Source of the DNA: a virus
Taxonomy: Duplodnaviria > Heunggongvirae > Uroviricota > Caudoviricetes
Virus record (IMG/VR): IMGVR_UViG_2526164633_000031
Direction: 5' to 3' (one strand)
Length of the DNA: 5,295 bases
Shown here: positions 1 through 5,295 of the stretch, one piece after another
Numbering within the stretch: position 1 is the first letter of the stretch
Layout of the letters: the number at the start of each line of letters is the position of its first letter
Position numbers and translations under genes: made by a program
Notes under the pieces: generated by a model
Told to the model about the DNA's origin: nothing
The model's database searches: none
The model's input: only the letters and a program-made list of their open reading frames with translations

Positions 1-1
1 T

Positions 2-82
2 GCCGACACAGAAGACACCGTGCTGGAAATTCAGCGGCTGGCTACAGTCTGCCGCGACACCCTGAATGGCATGACGAAGTAA
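2..82 (+). CDS. 3' end of an upstream CDS, 5'-truncated by the window edge; small protein of unknown function
   Basis: Frame 2 is open from the window edge and ends at TAA 80-82 (translation ...ADTEDTVLEIQRLATVCRDTLNGMTK*). The stop lies 6 nt before the rep ATG at 89, an arrangement typical of translational coupling in phage early operons. No homology recognised. Confidence 0.4.
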   Translation, partial: ADTEDTVLEIQRLATVCRDTLNGMTK

Positions 83-88
83 ATCACT

Positions 89-2911
89 ATGACGGCAGAG
101 TACATCAGGGACTGGCAGCAACCGCGCCACGCAGTGGGGCGTGAAGGAACGGGGATCCCCGCTCCTGAATCCGCGCTTTCCTCCTGGCTGGATGCCTACC
201 GGGTAGAGAACGAGCGCCGCCAGGAAATGGCTGATGCGGCGTTCTCCGCCACGCCGCTGGGCAACCTGATTAATAAAAGCCTGGACGCACAGGAAAAACA
301 GGACAAAACCATCACACTGGCAGGAGACGCCAGAAAACAGGCACGCGGCGCGGTGGATGAAGCCATGGCCTCGCTGCGCCTGCTGCCGTCCTATCTGCGC
401 GATCCGCTTATTCGCCACCTCTCCTTCCTGCGCAAAAAACAGGAAGCCGATCGCCGGAAAGGCAAAAAGAGCTGGCAGGCTGAACGCTACGCGCGCGGAA
501 CCCTGCGCAAAATATTCGAACGTCTGGACCGCACCGACCACCGCTGGCTGACACCGGGTTATCGCTCCCTTGCCGGACGCGAACGCCTGGATGATTTGCT
601 TTACCTGCCGCAGCTCAACAAGCACCAGATACAGACGCTGGCCACCATGACGGCGGCGATGTTCAGCAGCACCTTCGAAAAACTCTGCGATGGCTTTGGC
701 GCGACTGATGGCGAGCTGACCATGGATGTAACGCTGAAGGCGTATCAAATGCTGGCCCGCATGGCGTTACACCTGCACGCCATGCCTCCGCATTATGACG
801 CACTGACAACAGACAAAGACCGGAGGAACGAACCGGACACGGAGCTGCTGCCGGGCGCAATCCTTCGCCTGACCTGTGCGGAATGGTGGAAACGCAAACT
901 GTGGCTGTTACGTTGCGAGTGGAGAGAAGAACAACTCCGCGCCGCCTGTCTGGTTTTCAGAAAAACATCACCCTATCTGAGCCAGGACGCGTTAAGCGAG
1001 TTTCGCGCACAGCGCGAGAAAACACGCGATTTCCTGAAAAGTTTCATGCTGGAAAATGAAGACGGGTTCACGATTGATCTCGAGACGGTGTATTACGCGG
1101 GAGTAAGTAACCCGGTTCACCGTAAGGCAGAAATGATGGCCACCATGAAGGGACTGGAACTTCTGGCCGAAGCCCGTGGCGACAGAGCGGTGTTTCTGAC
1201 TGTCACCTGCCCGTCAAAATACCACGCAACAACGGAGAATGGTCATCCGAACCCCAAATGGAACGGGGCCACCATGCGCGACTCCAGCGATTACCTGGTT
1301 AACACGTTTTTTGCGGCGGTCCGCAAAAAACTGAACCGCGACGGTCTGCGCTGGTATGGCATCCGCACGGTAGAGCCTCACCATGACGGCACTGTGCACT
1401 GGCATATGATGGTCTTTGCTCATCCGGAAGAAATCGACAGCATCGTGGCCATCACCCGCGATATTGCCATTCAGGAAGACCGCCACGAGCTGGGCAATGA
1501 TATTACTCCGCGCTTTAAGGCGGAGTATGTCGACGGCTCAAAAGGCACACCAACCAGCTATATCGCGACCTACATCGGAAAAAACCTGGACAGCCGCGCC
1601 GTAGATGGCATCGACCCGAAAACGGGCAAGCCACGCGTTGACCACGAAACCGGAAAATCAATGGCCGAGAGCGTGGAACGCGCCATCGGCTGGGCGCGCC
1701 TTCACCGGGTCCGCCAGTTCCAGTTCTTTGGTATCCCCTCCCGTCAGGTGTGGCGTGAACTGCGCCGCCTTGCCAGCCAGATGGCACGCAACCCGGAAGG
1801 CCCGCAACGGCTGAAGGATGACGCAATGGACGCGGTACTCGCTGCCGCTGATGCCGGATGTTTTGCCACCTACATTGAGAAACAGGGTGGCGTACTTGTT
1901 CCACGCAAAGACTACCTGATTCGCACCGCCTACGACCTCGCAGATGAGCTGAACGATTACGGCGAGCAGAGTGTACAGATTTACGGGATCTGGTCGCCGC
2001 TCATCGGGGAGTCTTCCCGCGTGTGCACGCACCCGGATAACTGGAAGCTAGTAAGACGTAAACCGGAAGCGGAAGACAGCGCCCGCGAAAATGGTTTTGA
2101 CCTTCAGGGCGGCCCTGCCGCCCCTTGGACTCGTGGCAATAACTGTCCCCGTGTACAGGAAACGGACAACAACGGGACAGAACAGCTGGAAGAACGGCCA
2201 GCACCGTGGCCGCAGCTTCCTGACGGCGTTGACGTGAATGAATGGATGCGCTCACTGAAACGGCACGAACGCCGGGCGCTGATGCGTTCGCTGCGTGACA
2301 AACAGGCAAAAAACAGCAGTGATGAAATGCAGAACTGGACACAGAGCCGCAAACAGCCACGGCCTTTGCCTGATAACCACGAGTTACTCGCTAAAGAATG
2401 GCGGGAGTCTGCTGAATCTCTCGGCCTGCATATCGGTGAACAGCAGATGCAGCACCTGTTACGGGGCGGCAGTCTGTACGTCGACGGCAGCATCATTGCA
2501 CCGCAGGGATTTGAAATTGTACGCAAACCGGATACCCGACCGGACAGCCGGATCACGCAGCTCTGGCAGCGCCTGAGCCGTAACCACGGCGTAAGCAGCA
2601 CGGAGATCCGCCATAACCCGGTCGCCAGCTATCTGGAACAGCTGGGGGCATCAGACCCCGAAGCCGCCGCACGCCTGGCATCCACACTTCAGCAGGACCA
2701 GAACACCATGAAAACACCCGTTACCGTGCTTTCTGACATGCTGCGCGCCATCCGCGACGCAGAGCACGCACAGAGAATCAGTGAAACCACTGAACGCGCC
2801 CGCCGCAAAGCAGACCTGCTGCGGGGTGGCCTGACCAGTGGAAACAAAAAACAGACAGAAACGGGATTCACAAATCCCGTAAATGAGCAAAAAACGCGCC
2901 GCGATATATGA
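89..2911 (+). CDS. Rolling-circle replication initiator, P2 gpA-like HUH endonuclease (replication gene A protein family)
   Basis: Single 940-aa ORF filling more than half the window. Translation carries an HUH motif (GTVHWHMMVFAHP, His437/His439, nt 1397-1405) followed about 50 residues later by a paired-tyrosine motif (TSYIATYIGKN, Tyr491 and Tyr495, nt 1559-1573). This order and the Y-x3-Y spacing match the phiX174 gpA / P2 gpA superfamily. It is about 180 aa longer than canonical P2 gpA (761 aa, from memory). Confidence 0.85.
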   Translation: MTAEYIRDWQQPRHAVGREGTGIPAPESALSSWLDAYRVENERRQEMADAAFSATPLGNLINKSLDAQEKQDKTITLAGDARKQARGAVDEAMASLRLLPSYLRDPLIRHLSFLRKKQEADRRKGKKSWQAERYARGTLRKIFERLDRTDHRWLTPGYRSLAGRERLDDLLYLPQLNKHQIQTLATMTAAMFSSTFEKLCDGFGATDGELTMDVTLKAYQMLARMALHLHAMPPHYDALTTDKDRRNEPDTELLPGAILRLTCAEWWKRKLWLLRCEWREEQLRAACLVFRKTSPYLSQDALSEFRAQREKTRDFLKSFMLENEDGFTIDLETVYYAGVSNPVHRKAEMMATMKGLELLAEARGDRAVFLTVTCPSKYHATTENGHPNPKWNGATMRDSSDYLVNTFFAAVRKKLNRDGLRWYGIRTVEPHHDGTVHWHMMVFAHPEEIDSIVAITRDIAIQEDRHELGNDITPRFKAEYVDGSKGTPTSYIATYIGKNLDSRAVDGIDPKTGKPRVDHETGKSMAESVERAIGWARLHRVRQFQFFGIPSRQVWRELRRLASQMARNPEGPQRLKDDAMDAVLAAADAGCFATYIEKQGGVLVPRKDYLIRTAYDLADELNDYGEQSVQIYGIWSPLIGESSRVCTHPDNWKLVRRKPEAEDSARENGFDLQGGPAAPWTRGNNCPRVQETDNNGTEQLEERPAPWPQLPDGVDVNEWMRSLKRHERRALMRSLRDKQAKNSSDEMQNWTQSRKQPRPLPDNHELLAKEWRESAESLGLHIGEQQMQHLLRGGSLYVDGSIIAPQGFEIVRKPDTRPDSRITQLWQRLSRNHGVSSTEIRHNPVASYLEQLGASDPEAAARLASTLQQDQNTMKTPVTVLSDMLRAIRDAEHAQRISETTERARRKADLLRGGLTSGNKKQTETGFTNPVNEQKTRRDI
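2861..2880. repeat. 20-bp perfect palindrome ACGGGATT-CACA-AATCCCGT (copy 1), inside the 3' end of rep
   Basis: Read directly: 8-bp arms that are exact reverse complements around a 4-bp spacer, flanked by A-runs (gaaACGGGATTcacaAATCCCGTaaa). The same arms recur at 2934-2953. Confidence 0.9.
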
Positions 2912-2933
2912 AGCGCGCATAAAACAGGCAAAA

Positions 2934-2953
2934 ACGGGATTTCAGAATCCCGT
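2934..2953. repeat. 20-bp perfect palindrome ACGGGATT-TCAG-AATCCCGT (copy 2), in the rep-parM intergenic region
   Basis: Read directly: identical 8-bp arms to copy 1 with a different 4-bp spacer, again flanked by A-runs. Start-to-start distance from copy 1 is 73 bp, about 7 helical turns, so both sites face the same side of the helix. Confidence 0.9.
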
Positions 2954-2987
2954 AAACGATTAATTAATCAACATAAGGAAAAGCGAC

Positions 2988-3947
2988 ATGAAAATTTGTA
3001 TCGACGACGGCTCCACCAACATCAAGCTGGCATGGACTGAGAACGGCGAATGCCGCAACGCCATCAGCCCGAACAGCTTCAAGTCGGAATGGTCTGCGCC
3101 GTTCGGTGGCTCGCAGCCTGCGAACTACATGCTTGATGGCGTGCGCTATGGTTTTGATCCGGTCAGCGATCGCTTTGTCCAGACGACCGACACGCAATAC
3201 CAGTACAGCGATGTGAATGTAATCGCCATTCACCACGCGCTGGTCAAATCAGGCATCACACCACAGGAGGTGGATGTGGTTGTCACCCTGCCACTGAGCG
3301 AGTATTTCGACACAAACGCACAGCCGGACATGGCCAACATCAACCGCAAAAAAGCGAACGTTATGCGCCCGGTGGAGTACCAGAACGGTGAGGCATTCAC
3401 TATCCGTAACGTGCGGGTTATGCCTGAATCCATTCCGGCAGGCTTTAAGGCACTGGCTGACATGAGTCCGTTTGAATCCCTGCTGATTGTGGATTTGGGC
3501 GGAACCACGCTGGATGTGGCAAAGGTTCAGGGACAACTGGCAGGTATCAGCCAGGTGTTTTGCGATCCACACGTAGGTGTTTCACTGATGGCCGATGCCG
3601 TGCTGTCGGTGATGGCCACTAACGGTATGCGCACCAGTCACCACATCGCCAATACCATTATTGAACATCGCCATGATGAAGCCTGGCTGCGCCAGCACAT
3701 CCACAATGACGCGCATTACGCCAGCCTGATGGCGGTTATTCGTGAAAAGGAAGAAACACTGAAACAACGCGTGATCCGCGCGCTGGCGGGTTTTTCGGGT
3801 TACGGGCGGGTGATGGTTGTCGGTGGCGGGGCGGAGATTGTGGCACCCGCTATCCGCGAAGCCTGCGGAGTTAATGCGACTTTCATCGCGGACGGGGTGC
3901 CACAGTTTGCTCTGGTTAATGGGCTGTACGCAATGGACAAGGAGTAA
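2988..3947 (+). CDS. parM: ParM/StbA-family actin-like segregation ATPase (type II plasmid partition)
   Basis: 319-aa ORF with good RBS. Translation aligns along its whole length with plasmid R1 ParM as I recall it (MKICIDDGSTNIKL.., ISPNSFK.EW, YSDVNV.A.HHAL, QPDMA.I.RKKAN, FTI..V.VMPESIPAG, SLLI.DLGGTTLD, GIS...GD...GVSL, VMV.GGGAEI, LVNG.Y). The actin-fold phosphate and adenosine motifs are present. Confidence 0.9.
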   Translation: MKICIDDGSTNIKLAWTENGECRNAISPNSFKSEWSAPFGGSQPANYMLDGVRYGFDPVSDRFVQTTDTQYQYSDVNVIAIHHALVKSGITPQEVDVVVTLPLSEYFDTNAQPDMANINRKKANVMRPVEYQNGEAFTIRNVRVMPESIPAGFKALADMSPFESLLIVDLGGTTLDVAKVQGQLAGISQVFCDPHVGVSLMADAVLSVMATNGMRTSHHIANTIIEHRHDEAWLRQHIHNDAHYASLMAVIREKEETLKQRVIRALAGFSGYGRVMVVGGGAEIVAPAIREACGVNATFIADGVPQFALVNGLYAMDKE

Positions 3948-3951
3948 GCCA

Positions 3952-4263
3952 ATGACGACACCAACCAGACGGATAAGTTTCTATCTGAAGCCCGCCGCCG
4001 TCAAGAACGAAGGCGAAGCATGCGCCTGGCTGGACAGCCTTACACCAGAAGCCCGCAAAAGTGGTCAACGCGTGGCTTTTCTGGCCGGGCTGGCACTACT
4101 GAAAATGAATCCGGCAGAGGCTTACCGACTGGCTGCATGGGCTGATGATGAGGCGTTATCAGTGACACAAACCAGGACAGAACGCCCCGCGTCACAGCCA
4201 GTATCAGCCGCACAGATAACCAGTCAGATGGCCGGAAATATCCGGGCGTTATTTCCCGAATAA
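3952..4263 (+). CDS. parR: ParR/StbB-like ribbon-helix-helix centromere-binding adaptor
   Basis: 103-aa ORF starting 5 nt after the parM stop, with AAGGAG (3939-3944) 7 nt upstream of the ATG. The RRISFYLKP (beta strand) and LDSLTPEARKSGQRVAFLAGLAL segments resemble R1 ParR (RTIAFKLNP / LDSIPQGERSRLNRAALTAGLAL), and the C-terminus ..IRALFPE resembles ..LRSLFPKE. Gene order parC-parM-parR matches R1. The track ORF starting at 3817 is an in-frame 5' extension overlapping parM and is not used. Confidence 0.75.
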   Translation: MTTPTRRISFYLKPAAVKNEGEACAWLDSLTPEARKSGQRVAFLAGLALLKMNPAEAYRLAAWADDEALSVTQTRTERPASQPVSAAQITSQMAGNIRALFPE

Positions 4264-4268
4264 CACAA

Positions 4269-4292
4269 CATCAGGGCGCATCCGCCCTGATG
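4269..4292 (+). terminator. GC-rich hairpin (10-bp perfect stem CATCAGGGCG / CGCCCTGATG, 4-nt loop) after parR; possible weak terminator or attenuator
   Basis: Read directly. The stem begins 6 nt after the parR stop. It is followed by ACTTTAAC, a short T-run rather than a canonical U-tract, so intrinsic termination is uncertain and read-through into the next gene is plausible. Confidence 0.35.
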
Positions 4293-4326
4293 ACTTTAAC
4301 CCGGGAGCATAAACAAGGGGGACACA

Positions 4327-4659
4327 ATGCAACACATTGACAGAGAAAAAGCGCAGCGACTGATTGAGCGGATGGAAGCGCTGGCGAAAGAAGAAAATGT
4401 CAACATCCAAAAAATAGCTGAATGTGGCCAGATAGTTCTTCGTCGTGAAAAAGACCTCAAACAACTGATGTCTGGCGAAACCAGCAAAACATGGACTTCA
4501 GGTGAGGAGACGATTTATTGCAGCTTCTGCAATAAATCCCAGTACGAAGTCACAAAGGTGATTGCTGGACCGTCTGTTTACATCTGCAATGAGTGCGTGG
4601 ATTTGTGCAATGAAATTATCAGGAGAGAAGTGACAGACAAAAAGGGAAAAAACGCATGA
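4327..4659 (+). CDS. Orphan ClpX-type C4 zinc-ribbon (ClpX N-terminal zinc-binding domain) protein with a unique N-terminal helical region; no AAA+ domain
   Basis: 110-aa ORF with strong RBS (AAGGGGGA 4313-4320, 6 nt before the ATG). Residues about 62-100 (nt about 4510-4626: [40 protein letters not shown]) align almost position for position with the E. coli ClpX zinc-binding domain as I recall it ([40 protein letters not shown]). Cys65-x2-Cys68-x18-Cys87-x2-Cys90 matches the ClpX ligand spacing. The ORF ends right after the domain. Residues 1-55 are charged and helix-like with no recognised homology. Confidence 0.8.
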
Positions 4660-4754
4660 ACAGAAGTAAGCGCATCATTTAAACCGTCTTTCGCCTCCCT
4701 TTCCTGTTTCCGATACTAATGTCCATTTTCGCAGTAAAAGGACATTTAAGATGA

Positions 4755-5216
4755 ATGCACGAAAAAGCGGTACTGGCAGATAATCCAGAATTGATCCTGC
4801 GTGTGCTACAGCTGAGATTTGACGAGTCACTGTCGTACCCGCGCATTTCTGCGCAGACTGGTGTCAGCAAAACCGCCATTTTTTCTCTGGTGAGGCGATT
4901 TCACCAGGTATTCACTGACTGGCCTCTTTCCGGTGAATATTCCTGCGGGCAACTGGCCCGGGCTCTTTTCCCGGGGCGATACCCTTCAGCCCCGACCGTG
5001 ACTCAGCCTGTGAAAGCAGAGAAACCCCGCCGGAACCGATTTTCACCGGAGTTTAAATGGAGACTGGTTCAGCAAACTCTTTTACCCGGTGCCTGTGTCG
5101 CACAAATAGCTCGAGAGAATGGAATTAACGATAACCTGCTCTTTAACTGGCGGCATCTCTGGCGTAACGGTGGCCTGCAACCGCCCGGCGAACATGAAAC
5201 ATCGCTACTCCCGTGA
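4755..5216 (+). CDS. Transposase-associated DNA-binding protein, HTH_Tnp_1 type (IS66/IS3-family TnpA/OrfA-like)
   Basis: 153-aa ORF. The C-terminal half (RRNRFSPEFKWRLVQQTLLPGACVAQIARENGINDNLLFNWRHLW) fits the HTH_Tnp_1 pattern of IS first-ORF proteins (RR.YS.EFK ... GI..NLL..WR). A second HTH-like segment sits near the N-terminus (SYPRISAQTGVSKTAIFSLVRRF). Start choice is uncertain: ATG 4751 opens a 10-codon frame, ATG 4755 this ORF, and GTG 5011 is a possible internal start. RBS AAAGGA at 4737-4742. Confidence 0.5.
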   Translation: MHEKAVLADNPELILRVLQLRFDESLSYPRISAQTGVSKTAIFSLVRRFHQVFTDWPLSGEYSCGQLARALFPGRYPSAPTVTQPVKAEKPRRNRFSPEFKWRLVQQTLLPGACVAQIARENGINDNLLFNWRHLWRNGGLQPPGEHETSLLP

Positions 5217-5295
5217 CGTTAACTCCGGAGCCGGATAATAAAATCCCGGCACCAGTGCAGATACCTGAACAGATAAATACACTGCCAGACAGTCT
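5213..5295 (+). CDS. Possible 5' end of a downstream ORF overlapping the previous stop (GTGA overlap), truncated by window end
   Basis: GTG 5213-5215 overlaps TGA 5214-5216. That frame stays open to the window end (VTLTPEPDNKIPAPVQIPEQINTLPDS..). It is either a coupled next gene, as in tnpA-tnpB arrangements, or the continuation of a frameshifted transposase ORF. Confidence 0.25.
   Translation, partial: MTLTPEPDNKIPAPVQIPEQINTLPDS

Follow-up and report, generated by a model that had tools for sequence, protein, structure and literature searches.

The actin-type segregation module parMRC (stbAB) of plasmid R1 and the IncFII plasmids, which are low-copy replicons, is arranged in the order cis-site, parM, parR, and its cis-site is built from two sets of five direct 11-bp iterons separated by 94 bp. 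The srpMRC locus of the SXT/R391 integrative and conjugative elements (ICEs) is type II-like, belongs to an element that is integrated by a tyrosine recombinase and rolling-circle replicated as an excised circle through a nicking enzyme (relaxase), and stabilizes that excised form by lowering its loss (Carraro et al., 2015, PMC4489591). In the AlpAC/alpS system of the integrated Corynebacterium glutamicum prophage CGP3, an actin-like protein is paired with a DNA-binding adaptor that recognizes sites in the promoter region upstream of itself; the pair is induced early upon excision, and without it the circular phage DNA is not replicated efficiently (Donovan et al., 2015, PMC4446434). Plasmid prophages of the KS14/VP882 group join P2-type morphogenesis genes to a partition function, and Burkholderia phage KS14, which carries RepB, a type I ParA and a serine recombinase, is a proven plasmid (PMC3091744).

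The locus described here lies in a 5,295-nucleotide (nt) stretch of viral DNA, the whole of which is called the window. It shares with R1 parMRC the order of its parts, a full-length ParM with common Pfam domains and nucleotide-binding motifs, a ParR of the same Pfam family in which the N-terminal strand, the helices and the C-terminal KN..L tail are conserved, and two repeat blocks 5′ of parM, whose half-site AAATCCCGTAAA resembles, as judged by eye, R1 iterons such as AAACCCAAAAAC. Unlike R1, its carrier is an integrating P2-like prophage; its candidate cis-site consists of two copies of one 20-bp palindrome, 73 bp apart and partly embedded in rep, whereas the R1-type locus L015 has two 46-nt blocks of direct A/CCC iterons with 94 bp between them; and its ParR is shorter (103 aa versus 116 aa in R1, with ~34% identity over 56 residues). 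As to srpMRC, SrpM and SrpR are distant from R1 ParMR while the present cassette is a close member of the R1 family, srpMR is co-operonic with int and controlled by SetCD while parMR here follows a replication gene, and the carrier of srpMRC is an ICE rather than a phage. AlpAC, likened here by description, comes from a distant actin-like family and a Gram-positive host, and has its adaptor gene first (alpA, then alpC). KS14 differs from this locus, which combines gpA, a type II ParMR, a tyrosine integrase and chromosomal copies.

Layout of the cassette and its candidate centromere

The cassette and its surroundings comprise the following features:
89..2911, + strand: rep, gpA-type rolling-circle initiator, 940 aa, intact (Pfam Phage_GPA, 5.5e-130)
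2845..2886, no strand: candidate parC block 1, within the 3′-terminal part of rep; 42-nt repeat unit with palindrome ACGGGATTCACAAATCCCGT at 2861-2880
2918..2959, no strand: candidate parC block 2, a 42-nt repeat unit with palindrome ACGGGATTTCAGAATCCCGT at 2934-2953
2963..2971, + strand: ATTAATCAA element, adjoining on its 5′ side the Shine-Dalgarno sequence AAGGA (2975-2979)
2988..3947, + strand: parM, predicted actin-like segregation ATPase, 319 aa (Pfam and PDB 1mwk matches)
3952..4263, + strand: parR, predicted centromere-binding adaptor, 103 aa (PF10784 Plasmid_stab_B, 1.5e-24)
4269..4292, no strand: GC-rich hairpin with a 10-bp stem, right behind parR

The rep product bears an HUH motif (HWH, residues 437-439) and a YxxxY pair (residues 491-495), and rep is 96.8% identical in nucleotides to gp16 of phage P88, with a dN/dS of 0.12. 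Its stop codon is separated from the start of parM by 76 bp. ParM matches Pfam StbA_N over residues 1-157 (2.3e-82) and the ParM C-terminal domain PF21523 over residues 159-316 (1.3e-68), and it aligns full-length with R1 ParM (PDB 1mwk; E 3e-93, residues 2-316, 46.5% identity), keeping in that alignment the phosphate and adenosine motifs DDGSTNIK, DLGGTTLD and GGGAE. It is thus predicted to be the actin-fold ATPase of an R1-type type II system. The parR gene begins after a 4-nt gap at an ATG preceded by GGAG, this codon being taken as the start in place of the TTG at 3817 given in the open reading frame list. Its product opens with a ribbon-helix-helix (RHH)-type strand, RRISFYLKP, and closes with a conserved tail, NIRALFPE. 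The ParR sequence alone returned zero matches from the PDB; a family profile that includes plasmid ParRs matches pB171 ParR/StbB (PDB 2jd3, E 3e-15), and the C-terminal motif N..(L/I)FP(D/E) aligns with KKNAMKLIN of R1 ParR in 10 of 10 ParRs. These alignments place ParR in the R1/pB171 StbB family, and parR would therefore supply the small RHH adaptor, encoded immediately 3′ of parM, that an R1-type system requires. The matches of ParM, ParR and rep lie far beyond chance. The original prediction, an R1-type ParMR cassette at 2988-4263 directly behind a P2-type initiator, is borne out on both counts.

The final 70 bases of rep overlap repeat block 1; block 2 lies 73 bp 3′ of it and 35 bp 5′ of the parM ATG. 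Each 42-nt unit holds a single 20-bp palindrome of the type GGGATT-N4-AATCCC, a motif that occurs twice in the window and, in the 35.8-kb genome of P88, only at those same two sites. Among 10 relatives the half-sites GGGATT and AATCCC are unvarying while the 4-nt centre varies. Paired palindromes are found in Plesiomonas and Hafnia loci as well, so that three lineages have GGGAyT-N4-6-AAyCCC pairs upstream of parM, spaced 72-83 bp apart, and these same lineages have the ParR strand RR(I/V)SFYL in common. The palindromes were also considered as terminators; they score as such on the minus strand only, where there is no converging gene. Their recurrence in pairs ahead of parM in other lineages makes binding by a protein the preferred role. 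A centromere role for the two repeats is plausible on these grounds, and block 2 likely doubles as a ParR operator. The window contains no array of about ten direct 11-bp iterons around the parM promoter, the arrangement that characterizes R1 parC.

Scanning for the sigma-70 consensus gave no canonical promoter for parM, and the rep-parM interval holds no terminator-like site on the + strand. The ATTAATCAA 9-mer is identically placed in the E. coli, Hafnia and Plesiomonas loci despite a ParM identity of only 62-63%, and may serve as the −10 or another regulatory element of a parM promoter. At the other end of the cassette, the homology of many relatives to the window ends at 4263-4289. The hairpin at 4269-4292 marks the end of the conserved module, beyond which (from ~4290) begins the variable cargo of the gpA-portal hotspot. 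The cassette had been predicted to occupy the place of variable cargo in P2-like genomes, and the gpA-portal interval is indeed the site of old and tin in P2 (Rousset et al., 2022, PMC9122126).

Carrier, distribution and descent

Ahead of an IS66-family element inserted at 4666, directly behind the gene for a ClpX-zinc-finger protein, the window's own content is limited to rep, parMR and one cargo gene. The insertion distinguishes it from P88, and its junction was absent from all complete E. coli genomes of the collection. Positions 1-4665 are 97.2% identical to phage P88 (NC_026014; Xuanwuvirus, Peduoviridae), whose gp16-gp19 are rep, ParM, a partition protein and the ClpX-zinc-finger protein, and whose gene table further lists int, C, cox and the complete P2 structural and lysis set. 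At this identity the window is assigned to a P88-type (P2-like, Xuanwuvirus) temperate prophage of E. coli. The original prediction would have been refuted by a plain plasmid whose rep is dead, and this scenario does not hold here. In P88, plasmid-type genes (ParMR) stand beside a full P2-type virion and lysis set, the gene content by which phage-plasmids are recognized. The partition genes of P88 were remarked upon by Pfeifer et al. (2021) and by Rousset et al. (2022, PMC9122126), both of which proposed an episomal state, and the annotation of phage D6 refers to a product "similar to phage P88 StbA protein". As a sequence feature, then, the cassette is ordinary, annotated and already known in print. 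The searchable literature yielded no functional work on the ParM/StbA cassette of P88.

The cassette is a common trait of integrated prophages. Of 5426 complete E. coli genomes, 1278 carry it, with 1543 of its places on chromosomes and 2 on plasmids; the same rep type is present in 1322 of these genomes, a near 1:1 linkage. Rousset et al. (2022, PMC9122126) likewise put its frequency among E. coli P2-like phages at about one in four, and the "uncommon replicon architecture" originally predicted is contradicted by both figures. One of the plasmid places is a 438,722-bp record (H107), and the other known plasmid-borne copy in complete genomes is integrated in a 129-kb replicon; no phage-sized replicon occurs among the 1545 places in complete RefSeq genomes. 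The sole exception for a phage-sized circle is the PLSDB record pZ1323PEC0009-2, 34,461 bp long and containing a complete P88-like genome. A match to a 26.7-kb Shigella boydii "plasmid" was rejected as an episome, this record being a linear, degraded prophage fragment. On replicon counts, the autonomous extrachromosomal lysogenic state that marks a phage-plasmid is not seen. The two alternatives offered by the original prediction therefore part ways: a prophage carrying a partition module agrees with the integrase-bearing P88 as nearest relative and with the chromosomal places, while a stable phage-plasmid does not agree with the replicon sizes, the one 34.5-kb circle excepted. A stable plasmid lifestyle of the P88-type element is unlikely.

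Compared with relatives, dN/dS is 0.03-0.10 for parM (dS ~0.1), 0.08-0.12 for rep and 0.13-0.4 for parR. Such ratios indicate that parM is under strong purifying selection, with a constraint like that on rep or tighter. ParR alleles are mosaic and evolve faster, with a breakpoint at about window position 4006. The open reading frames are unbroken in phage, chromosomal and defective O157 copies. P2-like prophages of Plesiomonas, Hafnia, Serratia and Enterobacter, whose ParM identities are 54-63%, show one gene order, int-C-cox-…-gpA-(0-2 ORFs)-parM-parR-variable cargo-portal; a tyrosine integrase, C and Cox are present in all the relatives that were examined, and the Plesiomonas relative lies on a phage-sized contig of 32,167 bp. 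A contig scan with ParM returned only relatives of 97-99% identity, and the intermediates came by way of a protein search. The gpA types beside parMR differ widely (30-55% identity), and the module is therefore not tied to one replicon. Phage ParMs form two clades apart from the R1, R621a and D6 plasmid groups, each with a bootstrap of 100/100; a joint clade of all prophage ParMs has a bootstrap of 42/100 only. Outside six prophage-carrying records, all plasmid ParMs found are less than 60% identical, the closest listed reaching 52.6%. A recent capture from a plasmid was rejected on this ground, and the suggestion of a recently acquired "moron" falls with it, the gpA-parMR order being kept across the divergence of ParM noted above.

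Proposed function and rival explanations

We favour, with somewhat more belief than doubt, the reading that the cassette is a working type II (actin-type) segregation module of P88-type phages that acts on excised or infecting circular DNA replicated by gpA, much like srpMRC in the SXT/R391 ICEs and AlpAC in prophage CGP3. We infer the following course of events. ParR dimers would bind the two palindrome-bearing repeats, which lie on either side of the rep stop codon, and so form a partition complex, probably auto-repressing parM by the same binding. ParM-ATP filaments, caught by the C-terminal tail of ParR, would push sister circles apart. Because the candidate centromere is atypical (two palindromic sites versus 2 × 5 direct iterons in R1), a ParR ring or helix is only putative here. 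The substrate would be the circular phage genome outside the chromosome, after infection or excision, rather than a resident plasmid, and the time of action would be that in which gpA, encoded immediately 5′ on the same strand without a terminator between, drives rolling-circle replication. The phage would gain the spacing or positioning of its replicating circles and would avoid loss at cell division while outside the chromosome. Against this reading, gpA of P2 belongs to the early operon silenced by the immunity repressor C, so that a long-lived, repressed and replicating episome is hard to picture. Since a normal lytic cycle lyses the cell before segregation at division matters, a role in positioning is favoured over one in partition.

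The extrachromosomal period would be long in non-lytic or defective derivatives, as exemplified by Sp13 of E. coli O157. In strain Sakai of O157, Sp13 has been described as a P2-like element that has an epsilon-like gene and lacks head and lysis genes; it is spontaneously excised, and upon mitomycin C treatment its circles rise about 30-fold and its early-region transcripts are raised (PMC2669165). The gpA-ParM-ParR locus of O157:H7 F6667 fits this description. A bolder proposal, which we put forward tentatively and hold to be rather unlikely, is that P88-type phages, which roughly one E. coli genome in four carries, pass through a regulated extrachromosomal phase without lysis and are facultative phage-plasmids or ICE-like, their gpA HUH rolling-circle replicon being segregated by a ParMR spindle on a minimal two-palindrome centromere. 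Such a phase, if true, would explain the presence of an intact module in defective, non-lytic derivatives of the Sp13 kind that excise and amplify.

Full phage-plasmid status, in which P88-type phages would routinely be low-copy circular plasmids with gpA as replicon and ParMRC for partition, integration being optional, appears improbable. The phage-plasmid screen of Pfeifer et al. (2021) did flag P88, suggesting episomal and integrative states, and plasmid maintenance was suggested by Rousset et al. (2022, PMC9122126). To these can be added the circular pZ1323PEC0009-2 with its whole P88-like genome and the phage-sized Plesiomonas contig, yet the former could be merely excised or induced DNA. 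KS14 demonstrates that a plasmid prophage may bear P2-like virion genes (PMC3091744), although its RepB and ParA are unlike gpA and ParMR. Against routine plasmid life stand the preponderance of chromosomal over plasmid places in the 5426 complete genomes, the large size of the replicons that carry the known plasmid copies, and the integrase, C and Cox retained by all relatives examined.

Partition proteins could also serve a resident prophage against competitors: as lysogenic-conversion or defence cargo, ParMR expressed from the prophage would counter incoming plasmids or related phages through partition incompatibility or through titration or silencing of parC. The cassette does share the gpA-gpQ hotspot with old, tin, retrons and further defence systems (Rousset et al., 2022, PMC9122126), but it forms the conserved left flank of that hotspot, whose variable part begins past the hairpin. 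The conserved ATTAATCAA element and the operator-like palindrome hint that the cassette has its own, autoregulated promoter, and the mosaic, faster evolving ParR alleles would suit such a role; however, the full set of ParM, ParR and repeats, kept under strong constraint and with conserved ATPase motifs, would be needless for interference alone. A search of PADLOC-DB with rep, ParM, ParR and the ClpX-zinc-finger protein gave no match at E <= 0.01, and the classification as a defence system was rejected. We regard this reading as quite improbable. The module could, finally, be a decaying relic, taken once from a plasmid and now hitch-hiking without function alongside rep. An integrated element seems to have no need of partition, and the candidate centromere is reduced relative to that of R1. 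Even so, the low dN/dS of parM, the intact reading frames of even the defective O157 copies, and the arrangement retained in lineages with widely diverged ParMs already strongly disfavour decay, which we consider very improbable.

Should the module work as a segregation system for the excised or infecting circle, a very common type of E. coli prophage would possess a plasmid-like safeguard for its extrachromosomal phase. It would offer a natural example of ParMRC joined to a rolling-circle replicon with a very small centromere, and would matter for the stability of prophages, their spontaneous excision and the transfer of cargo from the hotspot, for instance defence systems and toxins. The boundary between integrating phages, ICEs and plasmids would, if this is true, be blurred.

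A ParMR cassette behind the gpA-type initiator

The window contains five substantial ORFs on the plus strand. Its features are:

89-2911, plus strand: rep, gpA-type initiator, 940 aa (Pfam Phage_GPA, 5.5e-130)
2845-2886: repeat block 1, 42 nt, palindrome ACGGGATT-N4-AATCCCGT, within the last codons of rep
2918-2959: repeat block 2, 42 nt, palindrome ACGGGATT-N4-AATCCCGT, ending 35 bp before the parM ATG
2988-3947, plus strand: parM, 319 aa (Pfam StbA_N, 2.3e-82; ParM C-terminal domain, 1.3e-68)
3952-4263, plus strand: parR, 103 aa (PF10784 Plasmid_stab_B, 1.5e-24)
4269-4292: GC-rich hairpin 3′ of parR
4327-4659, plus strand: ClpX-zinc-finger ORF, 110 aa (Pfam zf-C4_ClpX, 8.2e-18, residues 64-99)
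4666-5295: IS66-family element, its end beginning GTAAGCG
4755-5216: tnpA-like ORF of the IS66-family element (HTH_Tnp_1)

The ORFs and their Pfam matches bear out the coordinates originally predicted for the cassette, and these matches, together with the alignment to R1 ParM, confirm the observation of an R1-type ParMR pair after a P2-type initiator. ParM aligns over its full length with that of plasmid R1, which carries the reference type II parMRC system (PDB 1mwk; E 3e-93; 46.5% identity), and keeps the nucleotide-binding motifs; a profile built from the window ParR and its relatives matches pB171 ParR (PDB 2jd3) at E 3e-15. A gap of 76 bp separates rep from parM, and parR starts 4 bases past the parM stop codon. 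Rep carries an HUH motif (HWH, residues 437-439) and a YxxxY pair (residues 491-495). Its C-terminal ~440 residues (~504-940; window 1600-2911) have no Pfam domain, and its length among relatives is 785-940 aa.

Positions 1-4665 are 97.2% identical to the temperate P2-like phage P88 (Xuanwuvirus, Peduoviridae); a dozen records of related phages match likewise. The P88 gene set comprises a tyrosine integrase, C, Cox, a derepression protein, gpA, ParM, a partition protein and a ClpX-zinc-finger protein, followed by P2-type portal, terminase, capsid, lysis and tail genes. Among relatives, homology usually breaks off at the 4269-4292 hairpin, which marks where the variable hotspot begins. Beyond it, the ClpX-zinc-finger protein has a short N-terminal region and a ClpX-type C4 zinc finger without the AAA+ module; its ORF is kept in P88 (gp19) and in 369 genomes matching at least 80% of the window, and the protein has no PADLOC match. 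Such a stand-alone ClpX N-domain could disturb the recognition of substrates or adaptors by ClpX. The IS66-family element sits 6 bp past the stop codon of this ORF, with the homologue of P88 gp20 truncated, and its exact junction at 4666 was found in none of the 5426 complete E. coli genomes searched.

Distribution and evolutionary depth

The segment covering the 3′ end of rep and all of parMR (2700-4263, counted at ≥80% coverage) is present in 1278 of 5426 complete E. coli genomes and the matching rep type in 1322, so rep and parMR travel together in this species. Copies of the segment occupy 1543 chromosomal places versus 2 plasmid places; the plasmid-borne copy examined is integrated within a 129-kb replicon, and the other plasmid record among those listed is H107 (438,722 bp). 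PLSDB holds only about six records with this ParM. One of them, a circular record of 34,461 bp submitted as a plasmid (pZ1323PEC0009-2, NZ_CP148288.1), is a complete P88-like genome bearing integrase, C, Cox, gpA, ParMR and structural genes, and could be a true episome or excised or induced DNA. Among cultured phages, the window-type ParM occurs in P88-like phages only (≥95% amino acid identity), bar the P1-like phage-plasmid D6 (47.8%). The cassette is a common trait of integrated prophages. Thus, of the original interpretation, a prophage with a partition module stands, given the P88 identity, the integrase and the chromosomal locations, while the supposed rarity of the architecture does not survive the genome count.

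In RefSeq phages 520873 and 503458, rep, parM and the portal gene are each broken into several short CDSs; because the frameshifts affect several unrelated genes, they resemble sequencing errors more than genuine pseudogenes. A 226-kb contig labelled Vagococcus sp., a Firmicute (NZ_JBQPOM010000071.1), encodes a ParM with 97% identity to that of the E. coli prophage, and contamination or mislabelling is likely.

The cassette is already known: public records annotate it, and two papers have remarked on it. One analyzed the gpA-gpQ locus of P2-like phages in E. coli (Rousset et al., 2022); the other flagged P88 in a phage-plasmid screen (Pfeifer et al., 2021). Partition is not taken up in the P88 genome paper (PMC5285337), and our literature search turned up no functional work on the cassette.

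With the six prophage-carrying records set aside, all plasmid ParMs found are <60% identical, the closest among the matches listed reaching 52.6%. Intermediate ParMs recovered by protein search, from Plesiomonas (63%), Hafnia (62%), Serratia (58%) and Enterobacter ludwigii (54%), all lie within P2-like prophages of one gene order (int, C, cox, …, gpA, 0-2 small ORFs, parM, parR, variable cargo, [ogr], portal, terminase), the cargo including HicAB, a KAP NTPase and others. Recent acquisition is not borne out by this distance from plasmid ParMs and by a gene order kept in diverged prophages. A neighbor-joining tree resolves two prophage ParM clades, P88+Hafnia+Plesiomonas and Serratia+Enterobacter (each 100/100 bootstrap), both apart from the R1, R621a and D6 groups and united at only 42/100 support. 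The adjoining gpA proteins are far more divergent (30-55% identity); the cassette thus keeps its place beside different gpA types. The 32,167-bp Plesiomonas shigelloides contig (WEKF01000002.1; 17.4 kb read) has P2-like genome size and an integrase gene 142 bp from its end, and could represent a circular replicon of its own.

parR shows mosaicism: a common allele diverges after codon 18 (breakpoint near 4006) but still has the strand MTTPTRRISFYLKP at the N-terminus and LFPE at the C-terminus. E. coli has at least two parR alleles with ~52% protein identity, the first 18 codons and last four residues common to both. Nucleotide homology is lost at 4006 in many relatives, including O157:H7, with parM still 98-99% identical, placing the mosaic joint inside the adaptor gene, beside the conserved motor gene.

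A putative two-block centromere

The two blocks are direct repeats 73 bp apart, and no further copy of their palindrome is found in the window or in the 35.8-kb P88 genome. Across ten relatives, block 2 has invariant half-sites around a variable 4-nt center. The last 70 bases of rep also contain block 1. In Plesiomonas the unit GCGGGAC-N6-AACCC appears twice at a distance of 72 bp, and in Hafnia, read by eye, GGGATTGAGGAAACCC and GGGTTCATTAAATCCC lie ~83 bp apart; the ParRs of both share the strand RR(I/V)SFYL. Serratia and Enterobacter, whose ParR strand is RKISFYL, instead carry a large inverted repeat unlike these units. In all three "GGGA" lineages, ATTAATCAA lies immediately upstream of the Shine-Dalgarno sequence. 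The R1 parC, seen in a record whose ParM is 100% identical to R1 ParM (L015), is made up of direct A/CCC iterons in two blocks separated by 94 bp; the window thus shares the arrangement in two blocks with R1 but lacks the iteron array. The window repeats are probably parC and operator, which would make this an unusual, minimal centromere. The rep-parM interval holds no plus-strand terminator-like site, and no canonical sigma-70 site was found for parM.

Proposed partition of an excised phage genome

Why would an integrated prophage keep a partition cassette? A stable plasmid lifestyle, to which the circular P88-like record might point, is argued against by the preponderance of chromosomal copies and by an integrase in every relative examined (P88, pZ1323PEC0009-2, Plesiomonas, Hafnia, Serratia, Enterobacter). 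It also sits poorly with P2 biology, in which gpA belongs to an operon repressed by the immunity repressor. A role in defense is disfavored by the lack of any PADLOC match for ParMR, and a functionless relic by the low dN/dS of parM against close relatives (0.03-0.10; rep, 0.08-0.12; parR, 0.13-0.4).

Two experimentally characterized precedents come from integrated elements. srpMRC stabilizes the excised, rolling-circle-replicating SXT/R391 ICE as well as a single-copy test plasmid (PMC4489591), and AlpAC of prophage CGP3, induced early, connects the circular form of the phage DNA with actin-like filaments, and without it phage DNA is not replicated efficiently (PMC4446434). In E. coli O157:H7, the copy comprises an epsilon-like derepression gene, gpA, ParM and ParR, then IS elements and tail genes alone. 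In strain F6667 (2259274-2288580), this P2-like prophage keeps int, the early region and intact gpA, ParM and ParR, the portal, terminase, capsid and lysis genes having gone by IS-mediated deletion; the half for replication and partition persists while the virion half decays. Its fit to the published description suggests that the O157:H7 copy is Sakai prophage Sp13, which excises spontaneously, its circles rising about 30-fold after mitomycin C with early transcripts induced (PMC2669165). If so, a replicating circular form of such an element does exist. The best-supported reading of the cassette is that of a working type II segregation machine, which would act on the extrachromosomal circular phage genome during gpA replication.
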